Origin: Diplonema japonicum
Lineage: Eukaryota; Protista; Euglenozoa: Diplonemea
Direction: 5' to 3'
NCBI GenBank assembly: GCA_964019335.1
Contig: OZ025754.1
Coordinates: 186,001 to 250,000 of the forward strand
DNA length: 64,000 nt
A program made the position numbers and the translations under genes. The stretch's first letter is position 1. The number at the start of each line of letters is the position of its first letter. Positions 19,295 through 47,807 of this stretch are shown one piece after another. The notes below the pieces were generated by a model that saw nothing but the letters and a program-made list of their open reading frames with translations, ran no database searches and was not told the DNA's origin.

Positions 19295-19327
<33 letters not shown>

Positions 19328-26401: not shown

Positions 26402-26764
26402 TCACCAGCTTTTCAAGTTCCAGGGGAGAGGGAAACTACTGCCTGCCTCGAGCCCGAAGCGAGGTGCACCCATAAAGGAAATAATCACCGATCTTGACAA
26501 CCGTAAGTGCCGTGACATCAATCGTCTCAAGCAAGATGCACCCATACAAGAACCCATGGTCGATAAAAGTGACGTTGGCGAACGGACGTAGGTCAATGGC
26601 CCGAAGAGAGCAGCGAGGAAGCTATGCCCAATCCTAGTTACGTTAGAAAACGAAGAGAGGTCGACAGCCCGAAGCGAGCTACATCCTTCCAAGAATGAAT
26701 CACCAATACATGTCACCTTCACCAGAGACCGAAGCTCTGTGTGAATGTCATGTAAAGGCCCCAT
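26402..26764 (-). pseudogene. Frameshifted remnant of a BspA-like (LRR_5-type) repeat gene
   Basis: VTCIGDSFLEGCSSLRAVDLSSFSNVTRIGHSFL, further units in other frames (IGDYFLYGCTSL), and a frameshifted C-terminal cap (FPLP/LELEKL) homologous to the kinase-LRR ending FPLPKELEK. Confidence 0.75.
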
Positions 26765-27576
26765 AAACCGGTAAAAAAAAGAGTGCCATCCTCAAGATTT
26801 CGTGGTGTGTCTAGCAGATACAGTAGCAGTCCGACTCTCGTTTCTCTTTCACCTTTCTTCTATGTATCCATGGTTCTATGCTCACTCATTTTCCTCCCCC
26901 TCCTCCCTCCTATTTTTTTTATTCTCCCCGGGTGGGAAACGTGTATACGAAAGAGAAAGAAAAGAAAGAAAAAAAAACGGAGAGAAAAAAAAAAGAAGAA
27001 AAGAAGAGAGAGGGAAGAAAAAAAAGAAAAACAAAGAAGAAGAAAAAAAAGAATGGAAAAAGAAAAGAAAAGAAAAATAGGATTTCAAGTAGGAATTCAG
27101 GAAGATGGCAACTGGAGCGAAAGCAGGGTGGTGGCGAGGCGGGGTTGGTTCGCTTTCTTATCCTTTTTTTTTTTTTTTTTTTTTTGTCTTCTTAAAAAGT
27201 TTTTTTATCTTGTTTGTTTTCAAAGCACATCGAGAAAAGGAATGGTGGGGTGCCAAACGAAACACAAAAAAAAGGGAAACAGTCCATGAATCCCATGCCG
27301 TACCCCCGCATTGCAGTGCTGGAGGGGGAAAAAAAAGCATTTTTTTTTTCTTTTGGAAAGAAACGATGGGGAGAGGGGGGGGAGGAGAGGAGGCCTAAAA
27401 AAAAAAAGAAAAAGAAAAAGTCACAATAACTGCCGCACAGCAGGCAAGAAAATGCAAAGTATAAAAAAAAAAAAAAAAAAAATCGTTTCTTTTTTTCTCC
27501 CCCCCCCTCCTCCCGCTCGATAAAAAAAAAAATGAAAATTCAAATTTTAATTCTTATTTTTTTTTTTTTTGTTTTC

Positions 27577-29136
27577 TTACATCTTTGCAGACTTGGGGAA
27601 GCCCCTCATAGCCTGTCTAACACCAAGATCGGCCATGATCTCCTCGGAACCACCGAGGATCGCGCCGAGCTTAATGGTACGGAGGTAGGCCTCAACAGCA
27701 CGGCCCATACCCGAGCGGGTGATACCTCTTCCTCCGAGGAGTTGGGTGGCATCGTCCGCAACCTCCCAAGCAAGACGTGTGATGTGGTACTTGAGCAGAG
27801 CAAGGGGGCCTGCAAGCTTGATAGACATCTCTGTGAAGGGCATCTGGTTCATCTGGTAGGTGATGTTTTCCAGCCAGTTCTGTGCAGCTTCGGTCTTCGC
27901 GATCATCCCCGCCAGTTTGAACCTAACGACAGGCTGGGAGATGAGCGGCTTCCCGAACGCCTTCCTCTGCTGCGTCCACTTGAAGCACTCGTCGACCATG
28001 GCGCGCATCCCGGTCTGCACGAACACATTGACTCCCCACCTTTCGTGGTTGAAGTTGTACATAACAATCCTGAAACCCTGGTTCTGCCTCCCGAGCAGGT
28101 TCTCCACAGGGACCTTAACGTCTTCAAAGGTGACGTAGGAAGTCCCAGCACACGATGAGTAGGAAACAGGGATCTGTGTTGTCTTCAGCCCCTCGCATCT
28201 CGGGATGAGAAGCATGGAGATCCCGAACATCCCCTTGCCCCCTGTCCTGACCGCCGTCACAAAGTAGTCGGCGAAGGCACCGTTCGTGATCCACTTCTTC
28301 GCACCGTTGACGATGTAGAACTTCCCGCATGGGGATTTCTTTGCAGTGGTTTGAAGGTTCGCCACGTCGGACCCTGCGAAGGGTTCGGAGATGGCAAGGC
28401 AGATACGCTTCTCACCGGTCAGAACCTCCTTCACGACTCTCTTTTGCAGCTCGCCCTTCCCGAAGTGCATAACAGGGGGCAACCCGATCACAAGCCCGTC
28501 CCCAAGACCGCCGGAGAACGCCGGGCATCCCACCTTCATGATCTCCTGGTGGACCATCCACTCGTGGAAGTAGTCGTACTTCTCGGCAGGGATGTGGCCC
28601 ACCACTGGGATCCCCATTGCTTTCAGATCCTTCATCCAGGGACCGGGGCCGAGACGGGCTGCTAAGATCCCTGCTTGTCCCATCTTCCTGTACAGTTCTT
28701 GGGTGGGGTACTTTCCTTGCTTCTCCCACATTTCCGCGATGGGCATCAGTTCCTTTTCCCTGAATTCCCCAACGTACCGTCTCACAGCGAGGTGGGTCTC
28801 GTCCCAGTATGGGCTTCTGAAGCCCTGGAAGTAGCTGATGTCACCGTAGGGAACCTTGCTCGGGCCTGCTGGGTCCCATACTTCCAGGCTGCTCTTCTTG
28901 GCGCCCTTCACCTTTCCGATCGCGAGGTGGTGGTACTTCTTCAGGATCTCCAGACGGTGGAGGCCGAAGAAGGCTTCTGTCGCGTCTTTCCCGGCGTATG
29001 GGCGCAGCACGCTCTGCCCTCCCGGATGGAACTTCCCGAATTTGCTGAGGTCGAAGACTTCGCCGTCAATCACCATCCACAGGTCCCCCGCTGTGTTGTG
29101 CTTCGCTACCTCCTCCAAGGTGTATTCTGTAGTCAT
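27577..29136 (-). CDS. Acyl-CoA dehydrogenase with N-terminal cytochrome b5 domain, probably peroxisomal
   Basis: Cytochrome b5 motif (YTLEEVAKHN...FHPGG), ACAD motifs LAISEPFAGSD, NGAKKWITNG, AFGKPL, ILGGSEEIM, and C-terminal AKM (PTS1-like). Confidence 0.92.
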   Translation of the reverse strand: MTTEYTLEEVAKHNTAGDLWMVIDGEVFDLSKFGKFHPGGQSVLRPYAGKDATEAFFGLHRLEILKKYHHLAIGKVKGAKKSSLEVWDPAGPSKVPYGDISYFQGFRSPYWDETHLAVRRYVGEFREKELMPIAEMWEKQGKYPTQELYRKMGQAGILAARLGPGPWMKDLKAMGIPVVGHIPAEKYDYFHEWMVHQEIMKVGCPAFSGGLGDGLVIGLPPVMHFGKGELQKRVVKEVLTGEKRICLAISEPFAGSDVANLQTTAKKSPCGKFYIVNGAKKWITNGAFADYFVTAVRTGGKGMFGISMLLIPRCEGLKTTQIPVSYSSCAGTSYVTFEDVKVPVENLLGRQNQGFRIVMYNFNHERWGVNVFVQTGMRAMVDECFKWTQQRKAFGKPLISQPVVRFKLAGMIAKTEAAQNWLENITYQMNQMPFTEMSIKLAGPLALLKYHITRLAWEVADDATQLLGGRGITRSGMGRAVEAYLRTIKLGAILGGSEEIMADLGVRQAMRGFPKSAKM

Positions 29137-29416
29137 TTTTTTTAAATTTCTTTCCTTTTGTGTGTCTTTTTTTTTTTTTTTTTTTTTTTTGAGAATATCT
29201 GTGGGTGTGGTGAGATGTACAATGCGCTGGAGAGAGAAGAAGAAAAAAAGAAGAAGAAAAAAAGGAAAAATACTATTATTAACCACTAAGGGGCCATGAG
29301 GCATACAACCCCGACAATTCTGGGGACGCTGGAAATAAAAAAAGAAATCTTCAAAGGTTCCAGCGTCTGACGGGAACCAATGTTGGAAGAAAATCGACAT
29401 CTGTGAAGAATAAATA

Positions 29417-29508
29417 GCCCTGCGAGCCCTCAACGGTAAAATGCGGAACTCGAGGTAACGGTAAAGTCATTACTTGTTGGCAGTAAATAGTAAATAGCTA
29501 TTATTTTT
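29417..29508 (-). mobile_element. Half copy (one hairpin arm) of the 41579-42786 element
   Basis: Reverse complement of ~41579-41683, truncated at the hairpin apex. Confidence 0.75.
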
Positions 29509-29995: not shown

Positions 29996-30034
29996 TGCAC
30001 TTCAGGTGTGCATGTGTCAAAAATAACCCCCCCT

Positions 30035-30308: not shown

Positions 30309-30780
30309 CGGGAGACACTTTAAATATGGGTCCGGGTGCGAAGGAGGAGCAGGAGGAAGGAACCAGTTTTTTCTTCAACTCTTTTTTTGGGGAGCAGGTC
30401 AAGCAGGGAGGCAAGTATAAGTTAAGCTCATACACTTCTTTCGTTTAACAGCCTTTCTGTTGTTCCTCCGTCAAGAGGGGAAATATCTCAAGAAAAGAGG
30501 GGCGGGGAAATGCTTGAACGAAATGAAAAATAACAACTAGAAAAAGCAGGATAGATTTATGACAAGAAAACACTTTTGGGACCCTCTTTCTTTTCTCTTC
30601 ACACTATATACATTCTTGTCTTCCTTCATCGACTTTGCTACATCGGCAGGGTAGTCAGCAGGGTAGTCGGTTGCTTGATGTGTTCTCTCTGTTGCGGGGC
30701 CGCCTCAGCATCCACACACTGATCAGTACTTCTTCTCTTGCCTCCTGAGCCCTCCTACTTATTACAGTACACTCACTACT

Positions 30781-33700
30781 TTATTGCCTAAACTTTTCAA
30801 GCTCCTTGGGGAGAGGAAAGCTCTTGTTGGCTTTGATTGCCTGAAGGGAGGTGCACCCTTTCAAGAACCAATTGCCGATACTCGTGATGTTGGAAAGCGG
30901 TGGGAAATCGACAGCCTGAAGGGAGGCGCACCCTTCCAAGAAGCTATAGCCGATGCTGGTGATCTTGGAAAACGGTGCGAGATCGACAGCCTGAAGGGAG
31001 GTGCATCCTTCCAAGAAGCTATTATCGATGCTGGTGATGTTGGACAGCGGTGCGAGATTGACAGCATGAAGAGAGGTGCACCCTTTCAAGAACCTACCGC
31101 CGATGCTGGTGATGTTGGAAAGCGGTGCGAGATCGACAGCCTGAAGGGAGGTGCACCCTTTCAAGAACCAATTGCCGATGCTCGTGATGTTGGAGAGCGA
31201 TGTGAGATCGACAGCCTTAAGGGAGGTGCACTCTTCCAAGAAGCTATCGCCGATGCTCGTGATGTTGGAAAGCTGTGGGAGATTGACAGTCTCAAGGGAA
31301 ATGCACCCTTCCAAGAAGCCATCGCCGATGCTGGTGATGTTGGAAAGCGGTGCGAGATTGACAGCCTGAAGGGAGGTGCACCCTTTCAAGAACCTACCGC
31401 CTATGCTGGTGATGTTGGAAAGCGGTGCGAGATCGACAGCCCGAACGGAGGCGCACCCTTTCAAGAACCAATTGCCGATGCTGGTTATGTTGGAAAGCGG
31501 TGCGAGATCGACTGCCTGAAGGGAGGTGCACTCTTCCAAGAAGCTATCACCGATGCAGGTGATGTTGGAAAGCGGTGGGAGATCGACAGCCTGAAGGGAG
31601 GTGCACCCTTCCAAGAAGCTATCGCCGATGCTGGTGATGTTGGAAAGCGGTACTAAATCGCCAGCCTTAAGGGAGGTGCACCTAGACAAGAACCTACTGC
31701 CGATGCTGGTGATCTTGGAAAGCGGTGCGAGATCGACAGCCTGAACGGAGGCGCACCCTTTCAAGAACCAATTGCCGATGCTGGTTATGTTGGAAAGCGG
31801 TGCGAGATCGACTGCCTGAAGGGAGGTGCACTCTTCTAAGAAGCTATCACCGATGCTGGTGATGTTGGAAAGCGGTGGGAGATTGACAGCCTGAAGGGAG
31901 GTGCACCCTTCCAAGAAGCTATCGCCGATGCTGGTGATGTTGGAAAGCGGTGCTAAATCGCCAGCCTTAAGGGAGGTGCACCTAGACAAGAACCTACTGC
32001 CGATGCTGGTGATCTTGGAAAGCGGTGCGAGATCGACAGCCCGAACGGAGGCGCACCCTTTCAAGAACCAATTGCCGATGCTGGTTATGTTGGAAAGCGG
32101 TGCGAGATCGACTGCCTGAAGGGAGGTGCACTCTTCCAAGAAGCTATCGCCGATGCTGGTTATGTTGGAAAGCGGTGCTAAATCGACAGCCTGAAGGGAG
32201 GTGCACCCTTCCAAGAAGCTATCGCCGATGCTGGTGATGTTGGAAAGCGGTGCTAAATCGCCAGCCTTAAGGGAGGTGCACCTAGACAAGAACCTACTGC
32301 CGATGCTGGTGATGTTGGAAAGCGGTGCGACATCGACAGCCTGAAGGGACGCGCACCCTTTCAAGAACCAATTGCCGATGCTGGTGACGTTGGAAAGCGG
32401 TGCGACATCGACAGCCTGAAGAGATGTGCACTCTTCCAAGAAGCTATCGCCGATGCTGGTTATGTTGGAAAACGGTGCGAGATCGACAGCCTGAAGGGAG
32501 GTGCATCCTTCCAAGAAGCTAAAGCCGATGCTGGTGACGTTGGAAAGCGGTGCGAAATCAACAGCCTGAAGGGAAGTGCACCAAGACAAGAGGTTTTTGC
32601 CGATGGTGATAGACCCTGGCCCTGTCACGGTGGGCAGTGAGTCGAGAGAGAAGCTGAGTGACCTCAGCCGACAAGAGGTCCTGTCTTTGTATTTGCTTGC
32701 CAGGAAGTTATCAGCGATGTTGCCCCGCACGCCCTTCAGCACCACGTGTTCAAAGCCCAACACAATGGGGACGTACCTCTCATCCACATGAACCAGGGAA
32801 GCCCCTGTGAAGTCAATCACCAAGAACGGTGGACGTTCCACCAGCTTATCAAGCAACTGAAGCTCGTCGTGCTTCACCACCACCTGCATCTTTCCCAAGA
32901 ACCCCTCCATGCCTTCTTCCCACTCCACAACGAGGCCCTTCCTCTTCACTTCTTCCTCTGAGGTGAGCTGGCTTCCATCCTTCAAGGCTGCAACGGGATG
33001 ATGCTGATGTTGGTTCGGATCGTGGTGGTGGTGGTGGTGGTCGATGTTGTTGTTGTTCTTGTTGTTGGTGTGCTCAGGGAAGACCTTCACCCGTCCCTTG
33101 TCTTGGAAGACAGTCTCGCTGTCGGCATCCACGAACAGATCGAAGTCGCTGCTGAAGACCTCCACCCTGCGAACCCGTCCCAGCCCGTCCTTTGCGAAGG
33201 CTTTCTCTGCCGCCACCCGAACCTCCTCCACACCCGACCCCACAGCCACAAGGAGGGGCCTCCTCCTCTCCTCACCACCGAAGTCCGCGAAGGCCAGAAG
33301 CATCATCATCATCGTCGTCGTCATCGCAGGTGGAGTCGTCAGCACAGACAGAACCTCAGAAGCGGTCGGGCGTTTCGAAGGGTCCTCGCAGAGGAGGCGC
33401 AGCAGCAGGGTCCCCACCGACTCCCCCACGAGCTTCGGGAGGCGTCTTTCCAGCTCACCCATCACAAGGACCCGGTTCATCTTCAGGTACTTCAGGAACC
33501 ACCCCCTCAGCTTCTCATCCTCCAGAACGGCGAAGCACACGGTCACCCCGAGGGCCCACATGTCCACCTTGTTGGTGTACGGACCTACAAAGTCGGGTCC
33601 CATGAAGGCGGGGGTTCCCACAACGCTGTCGGCGGTCGCTCCAGAAAAACTATGGATCATGCTGCTGCTGCTGCTACCACTTGCACCAACAACAGCCCTC

Positions 33701-34209
33701 GACAGTCCCAGGTCAGCCAGAACGAACCTCGTCTTCCCTTCAGAGGTGTTGTTGTTGTTGTTGTTGCTGTTGCTGTCGACCATGATGTTCTGAGGCTTCA
33801 CGTCCCTGTGGATCCAACCCTTCCCGTGCAAGTAGGCCAGCGCCTCAGCCACCTCCCGCAAGAGCCTCACTGCCTTCTCTTGAGAGAGGGGTCCCTCCCT
33901 CTCCAGGAGCTTCTGCAGGTCCCCTCCAGTGTACAAGGGCATCACGATGTGGAGCTCCCACTGCGTCACCCCAGGAACCAGCTGCCCTGTCGTCCCGAAG
34001 TAGTCCACACACGGGACCACATTCCTGTGCTTCAGCTGCAGCATGTTCTGCAACTCCTTCACCCCCCTCGTGTAGTCCTCCTTCGTCGCCGCCTCCACAA
34101 CCTTCATCGCGAACTCCTTCCCGTCAACCTCCCTCACCGCCATGTAAACAGACCCCTGGCCCCCTGACCCGAGGTGCTTCCCTTTCCTGTACTTCTCAAG
34201 GTTCTGCAT
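30781..34209 (-). CDS. Ser/Thr kinase (NEK-like) + possible ubiquitin/PB1-like domain + 24 BspA-like LRRs (copy A, 1142 aa)
   Basis: Kinase motifs GSGGQG, AMK, HRDVKPQN, DLG, GTPAFMGPD, DMWALG. Beta-grasp-like linker domain. 24 x 25-aa CTSLQAVDLAPLSNITSIGxxFLxx repeats. No signal peptide or TM segment seen. Confidence 0.88.
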   Translation of the reverse strand: MQNLEKYRKGKHLGSGGQGSVYMAVREVDGKEFAMKVVEAATKEDYTRGVKELQNMLQLKHRNVVPCVDYFGTTGQLVPGVTQWELHIVMPLYTGGDLQKLLEREGPLSQEKAVRLLREVAEALAYLHGKGWIHRDVKPQNIMVDSNSNNNNNNTSEGKTRFVLADLGLSRAVVGASGSSSSSMIHSFSGATADSVVGTPAFMGPDFVGPYTNKVDMWALGVTVCFAVLEDEKLRGWFLKYLKMNRVLVMGELERRLPKLVGESVGTLLLRLLCEDPSKRPTASEVLSVLTTPPAMTTTMMMMLLAFADFGGEERRRPLLVAVGSGVEEVRVAAEKAFAKDGLGRVRRVEVFSSDFDLFVDADSETVFQDKGRVKVFPEHTNNKNNNNIDHHHHHHDPNQHQHHPVAALKDGSQLTSEEEVKRKGLVVEWEEGMEGFLGKMQVVVKHDELQLLDKLVERPPFLVIDFTGASLVHVDERYVPIVLGFEHVVLKGVRGNIADNFLASKYKDRTSCRLRSLSFSLDSLPTVTGPGSITIGKNLLSWCTSLQAVDFAPLSNVTSIGFSFLEGCTSLQAVDLAPFSNITSIGDSFLEECTSLQAVDVAPLSNVTSIGNWFLKGCASLQAVDVAPLSNITSIGSRFLSRCTSLKAGDLAPLSNITSIGDSFLEGCTSLQAVDLAPLSNITSIGDSFLEECTSLQAVDLAPLSNITSIGNWFLKGCASVRAVDLAPLSKITSIGSRFLSRCTSLKAGDLAPLSNITSIGDSFLEGCTSLQAVNLPPLSNITSIGDSFLEECTSLQAVDLAPLSNITSIGNWFLKGCASVQAVDLAPLSKITSIGSRFLSRCTSLKAGDLVPLSNITSIGDSFLEGCTSLQAVDLPPLSNITCIGDSFLEECTSLQAVDLAPLSNITSIGNWFLKGCASVRAVDLAPLSNITSIGGRFLKGCTSLQAVNLAPLSNITSIGDGFLEGCISLETVNLPQLSNITSIGDSFLEECTSLKAVDLTSLSNITSIGNWFLKGCTSLQAVDLAPLSNITSIGGRFLKGCTSLHAVNLAPLSNITSIDNSFLEGCTSLQAVDLAPFSKITSIGYSFLEGCASLQAVDFPPLSNITSIGNWFLKGCTSLQAIKANKSFPLPKELEKFRQ
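30825..32615 (-). repeat. Coding minisatellite: 24 x 75-bp units with a 4-unit (300-bp) higher-order period
   Basis: The Cys-codon anchor recurs every 75 bp from 30851 to 32576. Variable residues cycle DS/EG, DS/EE, NW/KG, then SR/SR or GR/KG. Confidence 0.95.
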
Positions 34210-34489
34210 TTTACGTGTGTTCTTTTTTTTATTATTATTGTAAATCTCCACTGTGTGATGGATTTCTTCCCCCCCCCCCCCCCCCCGTGTTGAGAGAATG
34301 AATAAAGCATAACATGGAAACGAGCAAATGCGAATTCGAAGAAAAGTAGAGAGGGGGCTGTTTGGGAATTGAGGGGGATCGTAGTACTTCGGAGTTACAC
34401 ATGATTGTAAAATCATTTATTTGAAAGATAATTTCATCATAAATATTTGTAACAAAAAGAAAGAAGAATGACTTTGGTTGCTTCATAAA

Positions 34490-35382
34490 CCGCCTCTAGC
34501 GGATGTTGCTGCCCTTCTGTGCTGAAGGATGCATGGCTGTGGGAAGGGTGGACTGCGCTCTGGTAGGTTGTTGTGCTCTGTAGTCAGGCACGAAGGGGCC
34601 GGACCACTCTTTTCTCTGTGCAGTCGGTACTGCGCATTGCCTTTCAAGTATTTCGCCTGCTCCCATGAATGTTCATCTTCAAGTGCTTACGGAACCATCT
34701 TACTTCAGGCACTGTGTACTTGCTCCACAGCACAGGGCGCTACCATGTTGACCAGCAGTTTCTGCACAATTTCTGGCTGCGGTACCTTGCAGTCTTTCGG
34801 TATTCCGGGATCCCATGAAGGCTAAGGCATTGAGGCATATCTTTCTTCGGAAAATTCATCACCGTGGTACATCACTTCTTTTCGTATTCGCATTGCGTTT
34901 TCGTTTCTTCCATATCATGTTCGTCTTCTGTTCGTCCACACCCTCTTTTATTCCCTCGAGGGTTGGTCGTTCTCGGCACATCCGTCCTCTGCGGTATCTT
35001 TTGATGTACCATCATTCCTTTTGGTTGCTTGCCAACTGCTCTTAGCCATGTCCATCCTAGCTTCAGTGGTTGGAGTACATTGCGCTTTACGTTGCTAACC
35101 GGTCCTACGGCTCTTTTGCTGTGCACCTTCTTCAGCAACGCATACGAAAACAGAGAAAGTCAAAAAGGACCTTGTGTAGCGACGTGGGGTATATCGTTGC
35201 GGGCATCTCCGTCGACGGCAGCTGTTGCGGTGGTGGTTCCTGCTGTAAGCTAGTGTCAACGGTGGAGGGGGACTCTTTCCCTTGTCTGCGTCCATTCGGA
35301 GGAAAGAAGGGCTGTGCTTGCTCCCGTTTCCCTTTTTTTCAAAAAATGCATGGAAACGCGTTTCCATGCCAGCATAGCCCTG
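34490..35382 (-). mobile_element. Degenerate hAT-like DNA transposon (one TIR end plus transposase remnant), copy A
   Basis: Terminus CAGGGCTATGCTGGCATGGAAACGCGTTTCC (minus strand, from 35382). The stop-interrupted peptide VQKLLVNMVAPCAVEQVHSA*SKMVP*ALEDEH resembles the hAT C-terminal dimerization motif. Confidence 0.6.
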
Positions 35383-35556
35383 GGGGGGGCCACCGCCCCT
35401 TAAAAAGCTCGAAATTCGTGTTTTTCGGGAAACGCACCCCTGGGTAAATTATACCCGAAAATTCCACCCAGATGCTAAAAAAAACAACTTTCCGCCGCTA
35501 TTTGGGGGTTTTTGTGGACTTCTATGTGACCTATTCACAATTTTGAGCGGGTGTGA

Positions 35557-35724
35557 CATAAATTTATTCGGTTCTTTTTTGAGTTGCTTTCTTTTTTTTT
35601 AAAAAGAAAGGGTAAACATTTCATATCTCCACAGCGCCGAGCATTCTTGTGTGGTAAGAATGCTTCGTGCACGTCTTTCTTATTTCAGAGAAGGAGGAGG
35701 AGAAAAAAGAACGTTGGGTGTTCT
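35557..35724. repeat. 168-bp direct repeat, copy 1
   Basis: Matches 40182-40349 with about one difference; internal hairpin GCATTCTT-N7-AAGAATGC. Confidence 0.92.
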
Positions 35725-35953
35725 TTTTTTTTTTTTTTTAATCTAACTCGTAAATGAGTCGCTTTGTTGCTCTTGGGACGCTTCTAAGACCTGTGCCCTC
35801 ACACGTATGTAGGGGTTCCCCTGCTGCTTCGTTTCCCACAGGCTTTTGTGGCTATTGTCTCCTATTTTTGCTTATTGAATCCCCCGAGGCACCACCCCCA
35901 GGCTTCTTTTTTGTTTTTTTTTTTTTTGTTTTTTTTTTTTTGTTTTTTATATA

Positions 35954-36428
35954 CTGTAAAACAAAAATCACCGGAAGATAAAATGTCCGGAAGAAAAATT
36001 GTCCGGAAGATAAAATGTCCGGAAGCTCTGGCGGTCCGGATATTTTTTCTTCCGGACATTTTTTTCCTGGGACCCCCCTTTTTTTTTTAAAGGGCTGGAC
36101 CCGAAAACAGATGAAACTAGTGTCTGTAGCAAGAGAAAATCAAACGAAAATCAGAGAATTGAATTACGTACTTTTCCAGATCCTGATTGTTCGCTTCTAC
36201 CACAAGCTTGTTGAACCGAACCACTGTGTTTGCTTTAGGGTTGTTCTTATGCTTTGCGGGTTTGCGTCATGGAGCCAATGTCCAGTATATCAGACTGGAA
36301 GCACCGCTTTGGTAGCTCCAAGGTCGATCCCCCTGCCGCACCCGTTACTGCGGGTCGCAAGCCTCTTCTGAACAAGGAAGAAACAACAAAGCTCTTTGTT
36401 TGGATCCAGGTGCAGAACGGAAGGGGTT
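35954..36428. mobile_element. Rearranged second copy of the pogo-like element (one TIR end plus an inverted internal piece)
   Basis: 35954-36291 matches 575-892; 36294-36428 is the reverse complement of ~1665-1798. Confidence 0.85.
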
Positions 36429-38343
36429 CCAGTTGCAGTGCAATCTCGTCTATGTAGCACAGGAATAATAAGGGTGATAGGACTGTTCCTTGAGGTACTC
36501 CTTCTTCCTTCTCGTGGAATTTTCCAGTTGTACCGTTCGTGTTCACTGCTGCTGTGCGCCCTTCCAAGAAGCTGCCGATCCAGTTCAGGAACTTTGCGGG
36601 TATCTTCATCTGTGCTAGCTTCTTCATCAGCTTCGTCTTGCTCACTGTATCAAACGCTTTTTCGAAGTCGAGGAAAATAGACAGGGCGACCTTGTTCTCG
36701 GACAAGCTGTGGCTGAGGGTGCGGGACAACAGTGCTATTTGTTCTACTGTGGTGCGCCCTGTGCGGAATCCTGCTTGTGTAAGGCACAGGTTGGGGGTAT
36801 CTGCGTTCGCCGTGTCTTCGAGGATGTACTCTAGCCTTGTTTTGATGAGTTTCTCTGTCAGCTTGCACAGGTTACTGGTCAGGTCTATCGGTCTAAAACT
36901 CTCCTTCTTCGTTTGTTCTTTGCCGGGTTTAGGCAGTGGTTTTGTTATTGCTGTCTTCCACCTTTCGGGTACTTTTGCGTGTTTCCATGTTAGGTTCATC
37001 GTGTGCAGCAGTGCCTCTTTAGCCTTGGTCCCTAGTTGCTTGAGCATCTCGTTGTGGATGCCGTCTAGTCCTGGGCTCTTGTGTGTCACGAGGTTTCCGA
37101 TCGCGAGTTCGAGTTCTACGTTGTTGAATGGCTGTTCAGACGCTGCCATGTCGTGTGGTGGGTCGACCGGCTCGTTTGTGAATTTTTCATGCTTGGCTTT
37201 GCTGACCGATGCGAAGTACTTGCCGAGTAGCTCAGCTTTGTCATAGTTGTCGTTGTACTGTACTCCTTCTTCGATCAGCGGGCAGTTTGTGGTATTTGTG
37301 TCTTTTCCCGTCATGATGTCGATCATTCTGTGGACTGTTCCCACATTCTTCACATCTTTCAGCCCTGCCGTCGTTCGCTCCCACGCTTTCTCCCTTTCAT
37401 GTTCGATGAGCAGCCTGATGCCTTCGGTTGCTTCTTTGAGCTCCATGTTTTCTTCGTCCGTGATTTCGGTGGTCTTTCTTTTCAATCTTCGGGCGATCTC
37501 GTTTCTTTTTGTCAATGCCTTGCTGACCTCTTCCGTCCACCACTGCTTTTTATGCTTCGGCTGGCATTGCCGGACCTTCTTTATGTGCTTTTGTGCCATC
37601 CTTTTTATGGTTCCCGTCAGCCTGTCGGTTGCCTCTTCCGGTGTTTTGCAAGACAGTATTCTTTTTGCCTGTTGCTCCATGTCAGATCTGAATCCTTGCC
37701 AGTTTGCGGACTTCCACGACCATATGTATTTTGTCGTTTGTTTTACGATTTGTGCGTCGAAGGGGATCGTGATGAGTATCGGGAAGTGGTCCGACTGCAG
37801 TTTTCGTCTAGGGACTTCCACTTCGGTGGCCATTCGGGTGGTCCGATCATGATGTCCGGGCTGGACTTCTTCTTGCCTTGCATCCGTGTCACTTGTCTCG
37901 GGTCGTTCCATATGACTCTGCCATGTTCTTCTGCCCAGGTGTAGAGCTCTTTGCCGCCCGCGCAAGGTTTTACTGACAGGTCCCATGTCCCCTCGTGGTG
38001 TAGATTAAAATCGCCTACTATGAGTGTGTTATCTCTTGCTGGTAGGTCTTCTGCCGCGAAGTCATCCTCTCTAACGTCAGCCCCTCCTGTTATTGGCGGT
38101 TTATAGATGTTGACGATGTGTACTTCGGGGCCGTTCTTTGGAGTCAGGAAGACCGAGATTGATTCCGTTGTTTCGTTCGTACGGGTGGGGCCTTGTCGTG
38201 TTACATATTTCTCCCTCACTAGGATCGCGACCCCCCCGCCTATTGCCTCTTTATCGGCGCCTTGTCGAGCTACCGTTCTTTTCTGGCTGTATGTGGTGTA
38301 GCCGTTTAATGCTATGTTCTCTACCCACACTTCTTGCAGGCAT

Positions 38344-38758
38344 CTGAAATGGCTTTAAGTTAGGATGAAGAAGCGAAGAAATAGATAAAAAGGGGTGGGA
38401 AAGAATAAATACTGCATACGAAAACAGAGAGTCGAGTAAAAAAGGGAAAAGGTGACTGACATCCTCAAGAGGAGCCTCCCACGTACCAGGAATTAAGCAG
38501 AGGTTGCTTCCATGGCCCGTATCAGTCTATCGCCAGAAAGAAAAATGAAAATAACATAACAAAGAGAAGGGGAGAAGAAACGGAAAAAGACGGCTTGGTC
38601 ATCAGAGAATGTTGACCCAAATGCGTCGGTGGACGCAGTTTAACGTCATACCCGGGACGGAAACCATGTTGGGAAAGCAGAAGGGAAGTTAAAAGTCCAG
38701 AAGTGGAAAAGGAAAAGGTGGAAACTAAAATCATAGGGTGCGAGGTCTGTGAGACCCT
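38344..38758. mobile_element. 415-bp non-coding insertion with a 4-bp target-site duplication (GCAT) in the LINE endonuclease
   Basis: GCAT at 38340-38343 and 38759-38762. Removing the insert and one GCAT restores VDVIC-LQEVW. Related partial copy at 30179. Confidence 0.8.
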
Positions 38759-39337
38759 GCATATCACATCTACTGAATGTTTCTCCATGCCTTCTTCTAT
38801 CAGTCGTCTGCTGTTCGTCCATTTCGCACAATTGTAGCTTATCACTCGCAGCTCAGGTTTCATTTCCGAGTCGGGGGTCTGTTTCGTTGTTTCTGTTTCG
38901 CCCGCCGTTTTTTCGGCTCCTTTTTGATGAGCTCCGTTCTCGGACCCGTTGCGCGGTGTTGTTTCCGGCTTCAAACTTTCTGTTTCGTTTTTGTTTGTTC
39001 CCTGCGCTGTTTTCAAAATTTCAATGCTCTTTTTTTCGGGAGTTTTGGGTTGGTGGGTTTGTTGGGGTTTGGGGGGAGAGACCCTCTTCTTTCAATCGAC
39101 TAGATTGACCACCCTTTTGTTTGGGCTTTTGCTTCTCTTCCTCTGCGGCTCTTCTCTCCTCCTTCCTTCTTCATCTTCTTTTTGTCCACCTCTGGGTTCG
39201 TAATCTCTCCCTCTTTTTGGTCCTGTGGCCTTTCTTTCCTCCATTCTTTCTCGTATCTCGTTCGCAAAGCTGTGTTCTATCGCTGTGTCGGCCATTTTTG
39301 ATTTTGGGCGCGAGATCTCTGTGGGCGTTGAGGAGGG

Positions 39338-39416
39338 TGTGGCCTTTTGTGGAGCAGGTGTGGCCTGTTGTGGAGCAGGCGTGGCCTGTTGTGGAGCTGG
39401 CGTGGCCTGCTGTGGA
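39338..39416 (-). repeat. 21-bp tandem repeat (about 4 units; PQQATPA)
   Basis: TGTGGAGCAGG(T/C)GTGGCCTGT-like units. Confidence 0.85.
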
Positions 39417-40181
39417 ATATACGCGGGAGGTCGCGCGTCTATCTTCTCCATCATGACTTTCATCATGTGGGTTATCTGTTGCAGAGCGTTGCTGTTCTCT
39501 GCCCTCATCTCCTCCACGCTCTTCTTTCCTTCTTCCACCTGTTCTTCTACGCACGTTACCCGTTTTTCTGTGCGGCTTGTTGCATTTTCTAGTTGAGCTA
39601 TCCTCTCTTTCATCTCTTCTAGTTCCTTTTCTTTTCTCTCTTGCTCATTCTTCTTTTCTTCCAGCTGTTGTCTTCTTTTCTCCTTGTACGCTTGTTCTTC
39701 TTAAAGCCTCCCTCTTTTCCATAAAACTTCATAAAACTTGCTCGGCTCCACTTTTGGACTTTTCCTCTTGTTCTTTTCTGCGTCACATCTACCACTCGTA
39801 CGTCGGGTATGCTGTGGACTTGTTCGCCTGTGTGCGATTTGAAGGCGGGGGGCTGTGTCCTTTCGGTGCCTCTAGTGTGGCTGCTTGTCCTGCAACTTCT
39901 ATCACCTTTCCTTTCCACCCCAACGTGACCATGTATTCTTGTAAGTATCCTGGTGCCGTTCCTTGCGGTAGTGGGTACAAAACGTACCACCACTTCTTCT
40001 CCCTTCCTTCCGTCTGTTCTTGTGTCTGTTCGTTTCTCTCAGCTGTTGGCATAACCGGAACTTCGTTTGTTTCCAGGCGGGGCCCCGTGGAGGCGTCCGG
40101 CATTGGGTTGTCTGACATTTTTGTGTTTCTTGTGTTCTTTTACCCTTCCGCCCACACTGAAAGCATGTGTGCATGTTCTTG

Positions 40182-40349
40182 CATAAATTTATTCGGTTCT
40201 TTTTTGAGTTGCTTTCTTTTTTTTAAAAAAGAAAGGGTAAACATTTCATATCTCCACAGCGCCGAGCATTCTTGTGTGGTAAGAATGCTTCGTGCACGTC
40301 TTTCTTATTTCAGAGAAGGAGGAGGAGAAAAAAGAACGTTGGGTGTTCT
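40182..40349. repeat. 168-bp direct repeat, copy 2
   Basis: Matches 35557-35724. Confidence 0.92.
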
Positions 40350-40524: not shown

Positions 40525-40845
40525 TCACAACCCTTCATTTAAAGTGTCATAGGTTTCCGGCTTGTCTGTTATCTTGGATAGTTCACAACTGCGAGAAGTG
40601 TCACATTCTTTTCTTGGGGGCACGCTCCTCACAATAATGAAGTACACAGCGCAGCCCAGAAAAGCCGCCATAGTCGCTACAAGTCCTATCAGCACCACGC
40701 GTGTTGCCATGCTAGAGCCTCCCTCTGAACTGTTGTCATTCCATTCCGGCCCTTCTATACCTCCTGTCTTGTTGCTATTGTTGTTATCTCCAAGCCCCAA
40801 GCACGGGCACACCCCAGCGGCGAGTACTGTAAGGGCGGCTTTCAC
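40525..40845 (-). CDS. Small single-pass membrane protein-like ORF (starts at GTG; may be a pseudogene or a downstream exon)
   Basis: Signal-peptide-like N-terminus, N-rich ectodomain and TM segment VVLIGLVATMAAFLGCAVYFIIV. No in-frame ATG upstream of the signal-like segment. Confidence 0.45.
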   Translation of the reverse strand: MKAALTVLAAGVCPCLGLGDNNNSNKTGGIEGPEWNDNSSEGGSSMATRVVLIGLVATMAAFLGCAVYFIIVRSVPPRKECDTSRSCELSKITDKPETYDTLNEGL

Positions 40846-41578
40846 GTGGTAAGCACCTAAATATGTGTTTTAATGGCGCAGAAAACAGGACTATAAAAAA
40901 AAGAATTAATTGAAATGTGTTTTGTCATGCAAAGCAAAAAGAAAGAGAGAAAGGATTGGAAAGAGAGCCCTTCCACGTGGAACATAACAAACATGGCCCC
41001 CTGGTGCAATAATCAATGGCAGCTCGGTGCCTGCCAATAAAATATGATTCTCCTGAAAGAAGAAGACGGGCTCTAAGTCCCTCCCTCGCCTTGTTTAGGG
41101 ACTTGTACTGTAACCCCATGGAATACTTGTATGGCTTCCCCCCCTTTTATCCCAGTCTTCCCTCATGATAAAATAAAACCACTTACACGCCCTCAAGTAA
41201 TGCTCTAACGCCACTAGAGGTTCCCGATTTTTGGTAAACGCATAACTTGTTTAAAGAGAAGTGTTGTTTTTCACCTCGACCCGGACCAAAGGTCTTGCGG
41301 TGTTTTGGAGATCTGCATTCGTAAGATCTATTGTTGTATTTATAAAAGGGAAAAAGAAGGGGGCGCGGGTAGGGGAGGAGGGGAGACACTTTAAATATGG
41401 GGCCAGACGCGAAAGAGGAGGAGGGAACCAATTTCTTTCTTCCAACTCTTTTTTTTTGGGGGGGGAGCGGGTGAGGGGGGGGAGGCAAGTATAAGTTAAG
41501 CTAATACACTGCTTTCGTTTAACAGCCTTTCTCATTTTCCTCCGTCTAGAGGGGAAATATCTCAGAAATGCTTTGAAG

Positions 41579-42786: not shown

Positions 42787-43127
42787 AACAACTAGAAAAA
42801 GCAGGATAAATTGAAGACAAGAAAACACTTGGTACTCCCATTTTTTTTTTTTTTTCTTTTTTCCTTCAAACTATATCTATTTCTTGTCTTCTTTCATGCA
42901 GGGTAGTCAGCAGGGTAGTCAGCTGCTTGATGTGTTCTCTCTGTTGCTGGGCCGCACTTCTCGCAAGTGCGTTGCTTGTGGTTTTCCTTCAACTGTTTGT
43001 GGTGCCCGGACTTCAGCTCGCTACGAGGGTGCCGTCATCTATGGCTGTAGGGGTCTTGTCAGCATCCACACACTGATCAGTACTTCTTCTCTTGCCTCCT
43101 GAGCCCCTCCTACTTATAACAGTACAC

Positions 43128-44692
43128 TCACCACCGTATCCTTAACCTCTCAAGCTCCTTGGGGAGGCGCAAGCTCTTGTTGGCTATGATTGAGTGAAGG
43201 GAGGTGCACCCTTCCAAGAACCTATCGCCGATGCTGGTCCTCTTGGAAAGCGGTTCGAGATAGACAACCTGGAGGGATGTGCACCCACTCAAGAAGAAAT
43301 TGCCGATGCTGGTGATGTTGGAAAGCGGTGCGAGATCGACAGCCTGGAGGGAGGTGCACCCATACAAGAATTTAGAGCCGATGCTGGTGATGTCGGAAAG
43401 CGGTGCGAGATCGACAGCCTGGAGGGAGGTGCACCCATACAAGAAGTGACTGCCGATGGTGACAGACCCTGGCCCTGTCACGGTGGGCAATGAGTCGAGA
43501 GAGAAGCTGAGTGACCTCAGCCGATAAATAATTTTTTTGTTGAGGATAACTGCCAGGAAGAATTTAGCGATGTTGCCCCGCACGCCCTTCAGCACCACGT
43601 GTTCAAAGCCCAACACAATGGGGACGTACCTCTCATCCACATGAACCAGGGAAGCCCCTGTGAAGTCAATCACCAAGGACGGTGGACATTTCTTCAGCAT
43701 AGCAAGCAACTGAAGCTCGTCGTGCTTCACCACCACCTGCATCTTTCCCATCTTTCCCATGAACCCATCCATGCCTTCTTCCCACTCCACAACGAGGCCC
43801 TTCCTCTTCACTTCTTCCTCTGAGGTGAGCTGGCTTCCATCCTTCAAGGCTGCAACGGGATGATGCTGATGTTGGTTCGGATCGTGGTGGTGGTGGTGGT
43901 GGTCGATGTTGTTGTTGTTCTTGTTGTTGGTGTGCTCAGGGAAGACCTTCACCCGTCCCTTGTCTTGGAAGACAGTCTCGCTGTCGGCATCCACGAACAG
44001 ATCGAAGTCGCTGCTGAAGACCTCCACCCTGCGAACCCGTCCCAGCCCGTCCTTTGCGAAGGCTTTCTCTGCCGCCACCCGAACCTCCTCCACACCCGAC
44101 CCCACAGCCACAAGAAGGGGCCTCCTCCTCTCCTCACCACCGAAGTCCGCGAAGGCCAGAAGCATCATCATCATCGTCGTCGTCATCGCAGGTGGAGTCG
44201 TCAGCACAGAAGTAGAGAGGGGGCTGTTTGGGAATTGAGGGGGATCGTAGTACTTCGTCGTCGTCGTCATCGCAGGTGGAGTCGTCAGCACAGACAGAAC
44301 CTCAGAAGCGGTCGGGCGTTTCGAAGGGTCCTCGCAGAGGAGGCGCAGCAGCAGGGTCCCCACCGACTCCCCCACGAGCTTCGGGAGGCGTCTTTCCAGC
44401 TCACCCATCACAAGGACCCGGTTCATCTTCAGGTACTTCAGGAACCACCCCCTCAGCTTCTCATCCTCCAGAACGGCGAAGCACACGGTCACCCCGAGGG
44501 CCCACATGTCCACCTTGTTGGTGTACGGACCTACAAAGTCGGGTCCCATGAAGGCGGGGGTTCCCACAACGCTGTCGGCGGTCGCTCCAGAAAAACTATG
44601 GATCATGCTGCTGCTGCTGCTACCACTTGCACCAACAACAGCCCTCGACAGTCCCAGGTCAGCCAGAACGAACCTCGTCTTCCCTTCAGAGG

Positions 44693-44735
<43 letters not shown>

Positions 44736-45182
44736 GCTGTTGCTGTCGTCCACCATGATGTTCTGAGGCTTCACGTCCCTGTGGATCCAACCCTTCCCGT
44801 GCAAGTAGGCCAGCGCCTCAGCCACCTCCCGCAAGAGCCTCACTGCCTTCTCTTGAGAGAGAGGTCCCTCCCTCTCCAGGAGCTTCTGCAGGTCCCCTCC
44901 AGTGTACAAGGGCATCACGATGTGGAGCTCCCACTGCGTCACCCCAGGAACCAGCTGCCCTGTCGTCCCGAAGTAGTCCACACACGGGACCACATTCCTG
45001 TGCTTCAGCTGCAGCATGTTCTCTACCTCCTTCACCCCCCTTGTGTAGTCCTCCTTCGTCGCCGCCTTCACAACCTTCATCGCGAACTCCTTCCCGTCAA
45101 CCTCCCTCACAGCCATGTAAACAGACCCCTGGCCCCCTGACCCGAGGTGCTTCCCTTTCTTGTACTTCTCAAGGTTCTGCAT
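43128..45182 (-). CDS. Ser/Thr kinase + possible ubiquitin/PB1-like domain + 4 BspA-like LRRs (copy B, 684 aa)
   Basis: Kinase almost identical to copy A, with an expanded poly-Asn and a 28-aa in-frame insertion. LRR variable residues are SH/YG, SK/YG, NF/SG, DR/EG. Confidence 0.85.
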
Positions 45183-45461
45183 TTTACGGTGTGTTCTTTT
45201 TTTATTATTATATTGTAAATCTCCACTGTGTGATGGATTTCTTCCCCCCCCCCCCCCCGTGTTGAGAGAATGAATAAAGCATAACATGGAAACGAGCAAA
45301 TGCGAATTCGAAGAAAAGTAGAGAGGGGGCTGTTTGGGAATTGAGGGGGATCGTAGTACTTCGGAGTTACACATGATTGTAAAATCATTTATTTGAAAGA
45401 TAATTTCATCATAAATATTTGTAACAAAAAGAAAGAAGAATGACTTTGGTTGCTTCATAAA

Positions 45462-46354
45462 CCGCCTCTAGCGGATGTTGCTGCCCTTCTGTGCTGAAGG
45501 ATGCATGGCTGTGGGAAGGGTGGACTGCGCTCTGGTAGGTTGTTGTGCTCTGTAGTCAGGCACGAAGGGGCCGGACCACTCTTTTCTCTGTGCAGTCGGT
45601 ACTGCGCATTGCCTTTCAAGTATTTCGCCTGCTCCCATGAATGTTCATCTTCAAGTGCTTACGGAACCATCTTACTTCAGGCACTGTGTACTTGCTCCAC
45701 AGCACAGGGCGCTACCATGTTGACCAGCAGTTTCTGCACAATTTCTGGCTGCGGTACCTTGCAGTCTTTCGGTATTCCGGGATCCCATGAAGGCTAAGGC
45801 ATTGAGGCATATCTTTCTTCGGAAAATTCATCACCGTGGTACATCACTTCTTTTCGTATTCGCATTGCGTTTTCGTTTCTTCCATATCATGTTCGTCTTC
45901 TGTTCGTCCACACCCTCTTTTATTCCCTCGAGGGTTGGTCGTTCTCGGCACATCCGTCCTCTGCGGTATCTTTTGATGTACCATCATTCCTTTTGGTTGC
46001 TTGCCAACTGCTCTTAGCCATGTCCATCCTAGCTTCAGTGGTTGGAGTACATTGCGCTTTACGTTGCTAACCGGTCCTACGGCTCTTTTGCTGTGCACCT
46101 TCTTCAGCAACGCATACGAAAACAGAGAAAGTCAAAAAGGACCTTGTGTAGCGACGTGGGGTATATCGTTGTGGGCATCTCCGTCGACGGCAGCTGTTGC
46201 GGTGGTGGTTCCTGCTGTAAGCTAGTGTCAACGGTGGAGGGGGACTCTTTCCCTTGTCTGCGTCCATTCGGAGGAAAGAAGGGCTGTGCTTGCTCCCGTT
46301 TCCCTTTTTTTCAAAAAATGCATGGAAACGCGTTTCCATGCCAGCATAGCCCTG
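45462..46354 (-). mobile_element. Degenerate hAT-like element, copy B
   Basis: Virtually identical to 34490-35382. Confidence 0.6.
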
Positions 46355-46566
46355 GGGGGGGCCACCGCCCCTTAAAAAGCTCGAAATTCGTGTTTTTCGG
46401 GAAACGCACCCCTGGGTAAATTATACCCGAAAATTCCACCCAGATGCTAAAAAAAACAACTTTCCGCCGCTATTTGGGGGTTTTTGTGGACTTCTATGTG
46501 ACCTATTCACAATTTTGAGCGGGTGTGACAGAACCGGTACCTGCAGAATCCTGTATTGTGCACACA

Positions 46567-46680
46567 TTTTTTTTTTTTTTAAATTCCACTTCCTTTTCGA
46601 CTTGCTAAGGTCGCACCCACTAGGTGGGTTGGAAGTGTCTCGAGACGCTCACCCGGTTGCCCGGGTACTCATGACCGTAC
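46567..46680 (-). repeat. Poly(A)-tailed short repeat, copy 3 (5'-truncated)
   Basis: Same 3' end and A-tail as the 42061 copy, but ~40 bp shorter at the 5' end. Confidence 0.75.
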
Positions 46681-47058
46681 TACTGTCACAAATGTGCAAG
46701 ATTTTTTTTGGCCTAATTTCGACCCCTTTGACCCCCCCCCCCCCCCCCCGTGTTGAGAGAATGAAAAAAGCATAACTTGGAAGGAAACATGGAAACGAGA
46801 AAACGCGAATTCGAAGAAAAGGAGAGAGGGGGCTGTTTGGGAATCCATCGAGGGGGGGCCACAAGTTCAACGGGAATGGGGAGGGATGTCAAGCATCTAG
46901 AATTTCGCGGGTCTCTTGCTGATTGAGAATGGGGATTAAGAGGTCATCCTACAGAAGGTGCGAAAATTTTTGCTCACATCTGATGTACTTACTCTTTATA
47001 TTATGTTATCCCCACCACCTGAAAAAGAAAGAAAGAAAGAAAGAAAGAAAGTAGGGTG

Positions 47059-47807
47059 TCAGAGTTCAAAGGGGACTTCTTCGTCAGCTGTGTCCTCTAT
47101 CCCTATCCCTATGGTAAACTTATCCTTTAAGACCCCTGGGAAATTGTCAAATCCTCCACTAAAAACGATGGTTCTCAGGCTTGTGCACCCTGACAAGAAG
47201 TTCCTAGGTTTGTGCACAACAACACAAAAGGATGAGCAACGACACCGACAAACCTGAGGCCAGTCAAGTTCATTGTTACTAGGTTTACGCACTCTTTCAA
47301 AAAGTGATGACCAGCGATGAGAACTTGACAGGCCATTGCACTGAAGTCGATGGTTTCTAGCTTTTCGCACTCCGACAAAACACGGTTACCAATAGAAGAA
47401 ACATTGGGGAGGTGGAGAAGAACAGACGTCAGGTGCTCGCATTCCTCAAGAGTAACACAGCCTGTGGAGTCGGTGACAACGAGGAACCGAAGTCCGGAAG
47501 GAAGGTTTCCTGCACACAGGGACAGCCCTCCGCTGTAAGCCGCGTCCTTCTGAGTTCTCGCCCATTCAGATCCTTCAGTTTTACAGCTATTTTAGACCCC
47601 GCCTCCACATGGGCTTCACAACGAGACCGGTCTCCTGAACCTCCTTAGCATTGTTCCCGTCAAGGACCTCTCCCTCCCAAACCAGTTTGAACCTGCCTTC
47701 GAGTAAACCCGTAGTGCAAGCCGCCTTCTTGTATAAGTCCCCCACTGTTGCCTTCCCGACACTTCCACATCGTGGACCCCACCTCTTGTCTTCACGAACA
47801 CTGTCAT
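47059..47807 (-). pseudogene. Frameshifted gene for a ubiquitin-like domain plus BspA-like LRRs
   Basis: A UBL pattern (MTVFVKTRGGVHDVEV/KATVGDLYKKAA..GL..GRFKLVWEGEVL) is followed by LRR units LPNVSSIGNRVLSECEKLETIDF, GHHFLKECVNL and NFLSGCTSLRTI, spread over several frames. Confidence 0.7.

Follow-up and report, generated by a model that had tools for sequence, protein, structure and literature searches.

Described repeat receptors and the Diplonema genes

Fungal NLRs with highly conserved repeats, such as the Podospora NWD/HNWD genes, join an N-terminal signalling domain, for which Pkinase is one of the choices, to C-terminal repeats that are nearly identical and variable in number; the repeats evolve in concert with few selected positions in each, and no LRR was found in fungal NLRs (PMC4986451). 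In the alga Ectocarpus, the ROCO-LRR and LRR-kinase candidate receptors make up an LRR family of a protist lineage that evolves by birth and death, varies in repeat number and is under diversifying selection; an immune role is likewise inferred only (PMC3341825). Proteins of the BspA/TpLRR (LRR_5) type, including T. pallidum TpLRR (6mlx) and Trichomonas TvBspA, show family expansion with pseudogenes and have been described chiefly as adhesins, either secreted or at the surface (PMC2843621, PMC8529796); the word "kinase" does not occur in PMC2843621. The LRR receptor-like kinases are built from an extracellular LRR, a transmembrane helix and a cytoplasmic kinase.

The window analysed here is a 64-kb stretch of Diplonema japonicum DNA, for which an initial annotation had reported four LRR loci within 21 kb in TE-rich surroundings. 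All four lie at 26402-47807, among a broken LINE and high-copy repeats, and the two said to be intact kinase-LRR genes (A and B) do carry Pkinase and LRR_5 matches, each in a single intact, uninterrupted ORF; the other two (C and D) are broken. Like the fungal proteins, A and B have the N-terminal signalling domain and C-terminal repeat sensor of the NLR/STAND plan, but its central NTPase is absent (no Pfam match to NACHT or NB-ARC at E<=0.05), the repeats are LRRs, and no exchange between A and B is seen. They resemble the Ectocarpus candidates in being LRR genes of a protist lineage that undergo birth and death and vary in repeat number, but are without Roc-COR (no Pfam match to Roc or COR), do not have one repeat per exon and use a different LRR class. 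With the BspA/TpLRR proteins they share the LRR_5 profile (258 and 47 bits in A and B, respectively, vs. a curated cut-off of 27.7), the TpLRR fold, and expansion with pseudogenes; unlike the described members they are predicted to be cytosolic, and their 25-residue BspA/TpLRR-type units are placed behind a kinase. Relative to the receptor-like kinases the order is reversed and there is no membrane helix. A kinase followed by BspA-type repeats is also found in unnamed kinase + BspA/DUF285 clusters of the ESM Atlas (57-235 members) and in the proteins P0242 and P0315. By analogy, the A/B family may be a variation on a known receptor plan, working like the fungal highly conserved-repeat NLRs or the algal ROCO-LRRs without the NOD or Roc, and the fungal genes would be a closer model than VLRs or plant NLRs.

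Gene layout, neighbouring loci and transcription

Positions of the features within the window (strand as assigned)
Feature	Position	Strand	Remarks
Gene A	30781..34209	-	Intact, 1142 aa; kinase, predicted beta-grasp, low-complexity linker, cap rungs, 23 full 25-aa LRR units, C-cap
Gene A, Ser/Thr kinase domain	33346..34191	-	Pkinase E=8e-46; residues 7-288
Gene A, predicted beta-grasp (ubiquitin-like/PB1/CIDE-N-like) domain	33070..33315	-	Lead only
Gene A, cap (degenerate N-terminal LRR rungs)	32581..32895	-	Common to D. japonicum P0020 and P0225
Gene A, patch 1	32824..32850	-	Residues 454-462; vs. B 7 nonsynonymous, 0 synonymous
Gene A, patch 2	32671..32712	-	Residues 500-513; vs. B about 17.5 nonsynonymous, 3.5 synonymous
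Gene A, LRR array	30856..32580	-	23 units x 75 nt; higher-order period 300 nt
Gene B	43128..45182	-	Intact, 684 aa; layout as gene A but 3 full LRR units
Gene B, in-frame insertion	44211..44294	-	84 nt = 28 residues, directly after kinase
Gene B, patch 1	43677..43703	-
Gene B, patch 2	43524..43565	-
Non-coding flank identical to piece inserted in gene B	45317..45363	-
Locus C	26373..26910	-	Frameshifted remnant, LRR part alone
Locus D	47059..47807	-	Frameshifted UBL-LRR pseudogene, older diplonemid family
Duplicated unit, B-side copy	43059..46530	.	A side 30705-35558; kinase + 5' flank 99% identical
Broken non-LTR retrotransposon between A and B	35725..40181	-	APE endonuclease + truncated RT
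Direct repeats (168 bp) bounding the retrotransposon	35557-35724, 40182-40349

The kinase has the motifs expected of an active Ser/Thr enzyme (Gly loop, catalytic Lys, HRD and a DFG-like motif); read from gene A and its alignment to STK33, these are the Gly loop, Lys36, Glu52, HRDVKPQN and DLG, with GPD replacing APE. STK33 is the top PDB match (E=1e-19), and none of the PDB kinases matched at E<=1e-20, so the kinase is not placed in a subfamily. Over 429 codons of kinase and beta-grasp region, A and B differ by 4 nonsynonymous and 6 synonymous changes, and by its pN/pS of about 0.2 the kinase is under purifying constraint. The kinases had been described as near-identical, which holds for these substitutions, but the description omitted the 28-residue insertion and a 3-codon duplication, both in gene B. 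This insertion, known from the assembly and without confirmation among the contigs listed, consists of a 37-nt target duplication and 47 nt that exactly match the 5' flank of the gene itself.

Between kinase and cap lie a short beta-grasp-like domain, whose amino-acid sequence is the same in A and B, and a low-complexity linker. A low-confidence model (pLDDT 25-65) gives the domain a beta-beta-alpha-beta-beta topology, and all its named Atlas look-alikes belong to beta-grasp families (GRHL1_C, TDP-43_N, CIDE-N, Par3_N, KHA and PB1; scores 0.78-0.82). The UBL that had been suggested for A and B is thus kept as a lead only: the domain has no sequence match to the diplonemid family's own UBLs (hhalign probability 0.4%; none by HMM), fold searches gave it no placement, their matches being taken up by the LRR, and Foldseek with a single-sequence model returned nothing at E<=0.001. 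The proteins begin with the kinase, show no signal or membrane segment by hydropathy (no 19-residue Kyte-Doolittle window above 1.6; maxima 1.31 in A and 1.57 in B) and are predicted to be cytosolic.

The two broken loci are less alike than their listing as a pair of related pseudogenes implied. Locus C has 4 units and no kinase part, is 65% identical in nucleotides to the end of gene A and carries a 7-nt frameshift; it is covered by one identical contig, starting at an AG, in the RNA-like run X5, and on this evidence is an LRR-only remnant that is transcribed. Locus D does have the reported UBL N-terminus (49% over 45 aa vs. the UBL of P0295), but its repeats are only 29-36% identical to those of gene A, and it belongs to a different and older subfamily, the diplonemid UBL-LRR proteins. 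Run X5 is taken as RNA from its depth pattern alone: contig depth is about 49 at the unique 3' end of gene B, 6000-9000 at the neighbouring acyl-CoA dehydrogenase and 4-21 in intergenic DNA, so that transcription of the kinase-LRR genes looks low.

Repeat turnover and change on a predicted loop face

The IG-xx-FL-xx motif occurs 24 times in gene A (23+1 units), a count taken from the assembly and not from reads, and 4 times in gene B (3+1 units), with no four-residue combination common to the two, as had been reported; gene A, however, holds 10 combinations and not just the four listed. The array of A is mostly a reiterated 4-unit block, and to call it hypervariable was an overstatement. Its units differ on average by 5.1 nt at lag 4 and by 10-12 nt at lags not divisible by four, unit 5 is identical to unit 9 and unit 7 to units 11 and 15, and the 24 units appear to be mostly one recent block amplified about six times. 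An assembly artefact is an unlikely source of the array, 23 of the 26 units being distinct and the repeat bins standing at tens of times single-copy depth. Recent repeat exchange between A and B is not seen, since every B unit is at least 7 nt away from all A units (nearest 7-10 nt).

Such arrays recall a receptor for self and non-self, serving allorecognition or mating compatibility as fungal het genes do, with a polymorphic host protein as partner. Between units 5-8 and 9-12 of gene A only 3 of 100 residues differ, within the range of the fungal highly conserved-repeat receptors (at least 85% internal identity over 100 aa), and mean identity over all its unit pairs is 76%, gene B being too short for the comparison; high internal identity is also seen in the Podospora NWD genes, along with few selected positions per repeat (PMC4986451). 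The variation seen here is between paralogs, not alleles, and we think this reading very improbable.

The cap differs between A and B at 23 of 105 residues, by about 31 nonsynonymous and 5 synonymous changes in 105 codons, nearly all in three short patches; the contrast with kinase plus beta-grasp is significant (Fisher p=0.006). Clustering into patches is beyond chance: 34 of the 36 differences fall inside 29 codons, the remaining 76 cap codons carry 2, and an identical run of 37 residues has p=0.00025 in 100,000 shuffles. Two of the patches had been quoted exactly by the initial annotation (DKLVERPPF vs. AMLKKCPPS, and the second likewise), but they lie within the solenoid itself, in its degenerate N-terminal rungs, and not before the LRRs. 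Patch 2 begins at an IA-xx-FL-xx motif, and inside it the F-L-A codons are identical in A and B, flanked by changed ones. A source elsewhere in the window was sought for the patches by 12-mers, with no match except one that is likely due to chance.

In the structure model (pLDDT about 70-97 in the cap and LRR part) both patches and unit positions 20-25 all fall in the loop preceding the main strand of each rung, so the variable patches and sites are predicted to share one loop face on successive rungs. By fold the model matches TpLRR 6mlx best (Z 13.6, rmsd 3.7, 175 aligned), and the top six matches are all of TpLRR type. VLRs and plant NLRs bind through the concave beta-sheet; the likeness to them that had been proposed is loose because the variable face here is the loop face. 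Together with the pseudogenes and the duplication, the model agrees with the earlier picture of birth and death with divergence focused on one predicted face.

Counting distinct changes once each over 26 units, positions 20/21/24 have a nonsynonymous excess ratio of 2.2 (p=0.016), and the four sites originally singled out give 1.9 (p=0.034), vs. 0.59 at other exposed positions and 0.41 in the core. Positions 20, 21 and 24 were chosen from homolog entropy; being the most variable positions among 1032 units of 158 other proteins as well, their variability is not in itself evidence of selection. The test is a one-sided parsimony count of 17-19 changes with no recombination-aware model, and the evidence for selection is modest.

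Much of this would also be expected of neutral churn, in which a kinase-LRR gene that the cell could do without, lying among repeats in DNA prone to recombination, undergoes duplication and gains repeats through unequal crossing-over, its tolerant loops being scrambled by short gene conversion or templated repair with no special ligand race. The higher-order array of gene A, the variability of the same positions in all homologs, the pooled pN/pS of whole LRR units (0.99) and the 30 of 34 nonsynonymous differences inside the patches (p=0.10, N:S not significantly over neutral) all agree with it, as do the breakage of two of the four loci and the low transcript depth, and the templated insertion in gene B indicates that such events happen and are tolerated. 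It does not sit well with the conservation of other, equally exposed positions, the near absence of differences between patches, the constraint on the kinase, or the predicted placement of three separate patches on a structurally equivalent loop. We consider neutral churn alone a rather unlikely account, though the strongest of the rivals.

Proposed function and the wider family

The means by which intracellular bacteria and viruses are detected by free-living protists are largely unexplained, and a named family of variable kinase-LRR proteins whose variable residues are defined would open the problem to experiment in diplonemids. These are abundant marine flagellates, at least one species of which is transformable (PMC10161547). 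LRR families in diplonemid nuclear genomes were not found described in the literature searched (most subscription papers lay outside its scope, and the D. papillatum genome paper may list some in its supplements).

Given the architecture, the duplication, the block-wise repeat amplification within a gene, the pseudogenes, and a kinase and framework that stay constrained while amino-acid change is focused on one loop position of the rungs, we give about an even chance that A and B, and the young multicopy family to which they belong, act as cytosolic sensors. The near-unchanged kinase half combined with fast change at few exposed LRR positions is what suggests this reading. Selection would drive the loop change; a changing foreign protein would dock on the one loop face of the solenoid, the predicted beta-grasp domain would cluster ligand-bound molecules, and clustering would cause the conserved kinase to fire. 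The ligand might come from an endosymbiont, a virus or prey; D. japonicum carries two Holosporaceae free in its cytoplasm, with T6SS and LRR genes (bioRxiv 10.1101/719211).

That the family is multicopy and cytosolic had been proposed before; copy depth supports the first point and the absence of hydrophobic segments the second. Relative to single-copy depth, the DNA-like run X6 covers the kinase about 4-fold and patch 2 about 6-fold, and its paralog contigs show at least 3 alleles of patch 2, one form being 12 nt shorter, which points to several further kinase-LRR paralogs in the genome. Genes A and B are absent from the protein collection searched, where 4 of 5 queried neighbours are present; a cap-profile search of it returned its two seed proteins only, which is weak evidence, and a query including two LRR units returned mostly repeat matches.

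Other diplonemid proteins join the same cap or LRR type to other N-termini (UBL; UBL-DUF4116), and related ones have heads of the UBL type or a segment that may be ADP-ribosyltransferase-like (E=0.96). P0242, an unnamed protein with a kinase, a sub-threshold NACHT and the same LRR type, is likely a separate fusion, since its kinase is only 22% identical to that of A/B; it has no shared cap. The UBL heads and the ADP-ribosyltransferase-like segment would also suit an offensive or regulatory adaptor whose LRR selects kinase substrates among host, prey or symbiont proteins, acting as effector and not sensor, and so would the occurrence of the closest named repeats in Holosporales and Dependentiae proteins, where LRRs adjoin secretion genes. 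A/B proteins, however, have neither signal peptide or membrane segment nor a known export route, and with an unchanging host substrate there would be no advantage in amino-acid turnover; we judge the adaptor improbable.

Extending the sensor reading, we tentatively and with considerable doubt suggest a NOD-less diplonemid intracellular immunity, built on a 25-residue BspA-type solenoid of the type that endosymbionts of protists (Holosporales, Dependentiae) carry and giant viruses possibly do, with interchangeable N-terminal outputs (kinase, UBL, perhaps ADP-ribosyltransferase), beta-grasp polymerisation, block amplification, and selection on the loop face in place of the concave sheet. IMG/VR scans for a viral origin of related repeats found nothing, and no relevant paper on the KYLKYK motif turned up in the literature searched. 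A scan of GTDB confirmed 3 of 51 candidate stretches, the best being in a Holosporales MAG at 40%.

Layout and setting of the two kinase-LRR genes

Genes A and B, the two intact kinase-LRR genes, belong to a duplicated unit that is 99% identical across the kinase and the 5' flank; high-copy repeats are found nearby, and between the two genes is a broken LINE bounded by direct repeats of 168 bp. The two direct repeats differ by 1 mismatch, and the left one starts exactly where the A/B homology ends. The catalytic motifs of the kinase can be found by reading the sequence, with GPD replacing APE, and a signal or membrane segment is not evident in either protein. The region behind the kinase is predicted, in a low-confidence model, to fold as beta-beta-alpha-beta-beta, and every named ESM Atlas look-alike is of a beta-grasp family (scores <0.9), several of these families being polymerising types. 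Since the region has no match to the UBLs of related proteins, a beta-grasp domain is taken as a lead only.

The degenerate rungs ahead of the regular repeats, here called the cap, are common to A, B and two D. japonicum proteins, and the structure model predicts cap and repeats as a single TpLRR-type solenoid. P0225, a D. japonicum protein that shares the cap, has a weak match to ADP-ribosyltransferase just ahead of it (residues ~388-443, E=0.96) and is a possible enzyme-LRR fusion.

Features of the window
Feature	Position	Strand	Description
RING-finger-like genes	15615-16325; 18971-19693
C-terminal segments of the RING-finger-like genes	15606-15880; 18962-19236
Contig of locus C, run X5	26373-26910
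Gene A	30781-34209	-	1142 aa, single open frame; Pkinase and LRR_5 matches
168-bp direct repeats of the LINE	35557-35724; 40182-40349
Short ORF between LINE and gene B	40525-40869		two hydrophobic stretches, no Pfam match
Gene B	43128-45182	-	684 aa, single open frame; Pkinase and LRR_5 matches
Insertion in gene B	44211-44294	-	in frame
Flank source of the insertion	45317-45363		non-coding
Probably secreted protein	49383-51017

Focal change in the cap and the repeats

Outside a 9-codon poly-Asn region and indels, a comparison of A and B over the 429 codons of the kinase and putative beta-grasp gives 4 nonsynonymous and 6 synonymous differences, against about 31.5 and 4.5 in the 105 codons of the cap (Fisher p=0.006). 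All but two of the 36 cap changes (34) fall within three patches totalling 29 codons (clustering p=0.00025). In the 26 full units of A and B, with every distinct change counted once and with small counts, the ratio of nonsynonymous to synonymous rate is 2.2 at repeat positions 20, 21 and 24 (p=0.016). The same three positions vary most among 1032 units of 158 other proteins. The ratio is 1.9 (p=0.034) for the four variable positions picked out in the initial annotation, 0.59 for other exposed positions and 0.41 for the core. The structure model has two short strands per rung and places patch 1, patch 2 and positions 20-25 all within the loop leading into the next main strand; from this topology they would stack on one face, different from the concave sheet. 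The initial observation is confirmed in part, and the earlier reading of a diversifying receptor family is supported in part, as regards focal amino-acid change against a conserved kinase. Within the patches alone the nonsynonymous excess is not significant (p=0.10), and over whole units pN/pS is 0.99, both of which count against selection.

A has 23 full units and B 3, each with one degenerate first rung in addition. The four-residue combinations are, as first noted, without overlap between the two genes, though most of A's array is the product of a four-unit block amplification. This amplification is recent, as read from the period of four (units four apart differ by 5.1 nt on average, those at other spacings, multiples of four excepted, by 10-12) and from identical units (5=9; 7=11=15). 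A synonymous marker common to B's units is missing from A's, and no unit of B is closer than 7 nt to any of A; homogenisation therefore works inside each gene, and recent exchange between A and B is not seen.

Neutral churn within a repeat-rich region, which we consider rather unlikely, gains support from a templated event in B, a sign that such events remodel these genes: an 84-nt insertion consisting of a 37-nt target duplication followed by 47 nt identical to the gene's own 5' flank, 1.1 kb off, with short microhomologies, which we take to resemble templated repair. That A and B are cytosolic sensors is the likeliest explanation, at about even odds; only their architecture and the way the changes are distributed are established. 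The variable loop face would bind a foreign protein, the beta-grasp would cluster the bound receptors, and the clustered kinases would switch each other on. A role as effector or substrate adaptor is improbable, and allorecognition more improbable still.

Relatives and known systems

The named close matches of the A/B repeat are Holosporales and Dependentiae proteins, and 30 of 155 repeat-bearing matches start with a KYLKYK-type motif, possibly one of giant-virus proteins. The 30 (P0001-P0003 and 27 others) are AT-rich metagenome proteins with a KYLKYK...GG start and the same 25-aa repeats at the end; they may be giant-virus proteins, although IMG/VR scans did not confirm this. Another match, P0242, would have an NLR-like layout built with this repeat: a kinase only 22% identical to that of A, a sub-threshold NACHT-like segment (24.5 bits; cut-off 26.7) and 25-aa LRR_5 repeats of the A/B type. 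P0315 combines a weak kinase with the same repeat type, and in 30 further repeat matches no credible non-LRR domain was found. The pairing of kinase and BspA-type LRR is already known, since large clusters of such fusions exist in the ESM Atlas.

A and B would work like the highly conserved-repeat NLRs of fungi (PMC4986451) and the ROCO-LRRs of Ectocarpus (PMC3341825), but they fall outside both systems, lacking NOD, Roc-COR and an exon per repeat. They are LRR_5 proteins yet not surface BspA (PMC2843621, PMC8529796). No kinase-LRR family of this type in diplonemids was found described in the literature searched, and the D. papillatum genome paper has "leucine" only once in its main text, concerning a codon.

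Copies, transcripts and neighbouring loci

Between 41 and 69% of the sequence words of gene A are present in each of ten sequencing runs (one organism, three studies). Depth is even across runs X1, X3, X6 and X8, which are thus DNA-like. In X5 the acyl-CoA dehydrogenase reaches a depth of 6000-9000 vs 4-21 in intergenic DNA, and from this pattern the run is taken as RNA-like. In X6 the kinase has roughly 4 times single-copy depth and patch 2 roughly 6 times, a rough copy estimate from summed contig depth. The patch 2 contigs include a third allele beside A-like letters, and also a form shorter by 12 nt. Several kinase-LRR members appear to be transcribed at low level, as in X5 the unique 3' end of B has a depth of 49 and the patch alleles have depths of 23-108. 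Both A and B are missing from a transcriptome-derived protein collection, in which four of five neighbour genes checked are exact entries.

Locus C is a frameshifted remnant of four LRR units that shares 65% identity with the 3' end of A; its frameshifts are seen without difference in the DNA-like runs. It appears to be transcribed: in X5 one identical contig spans it at depth 365 (gene B: 49), starting at an AG and carrying 18 unmatched letters, which fits spliced-leader addition at a probable trans-splice site. Locus D is a UBL-LRR gene with a frameshift, akin to P0295 and P0337, of an older family that also has members in records of D. ambulator, Flectonema and Lacrimia.

The acyl-CoA dehydrogenase next to the kinase-LRR genes shares 94% identity with a protein of Diplonema ambulator, 86% with one of D. 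japonicum and 80% with D. papillatum. Together with the exact entries of the neighbour genes in the protein collection, this places the window in a Diplonema, probably D. japonicum or a near relative. The two RING-finger-like genes are diverged in their N-terminal parts and 96% identical over the C-terminal 275 bp, and in the probably secreted protein two WSC domains accompany an acidic Pro/Thr repeat of 360 bp that is duplicated.
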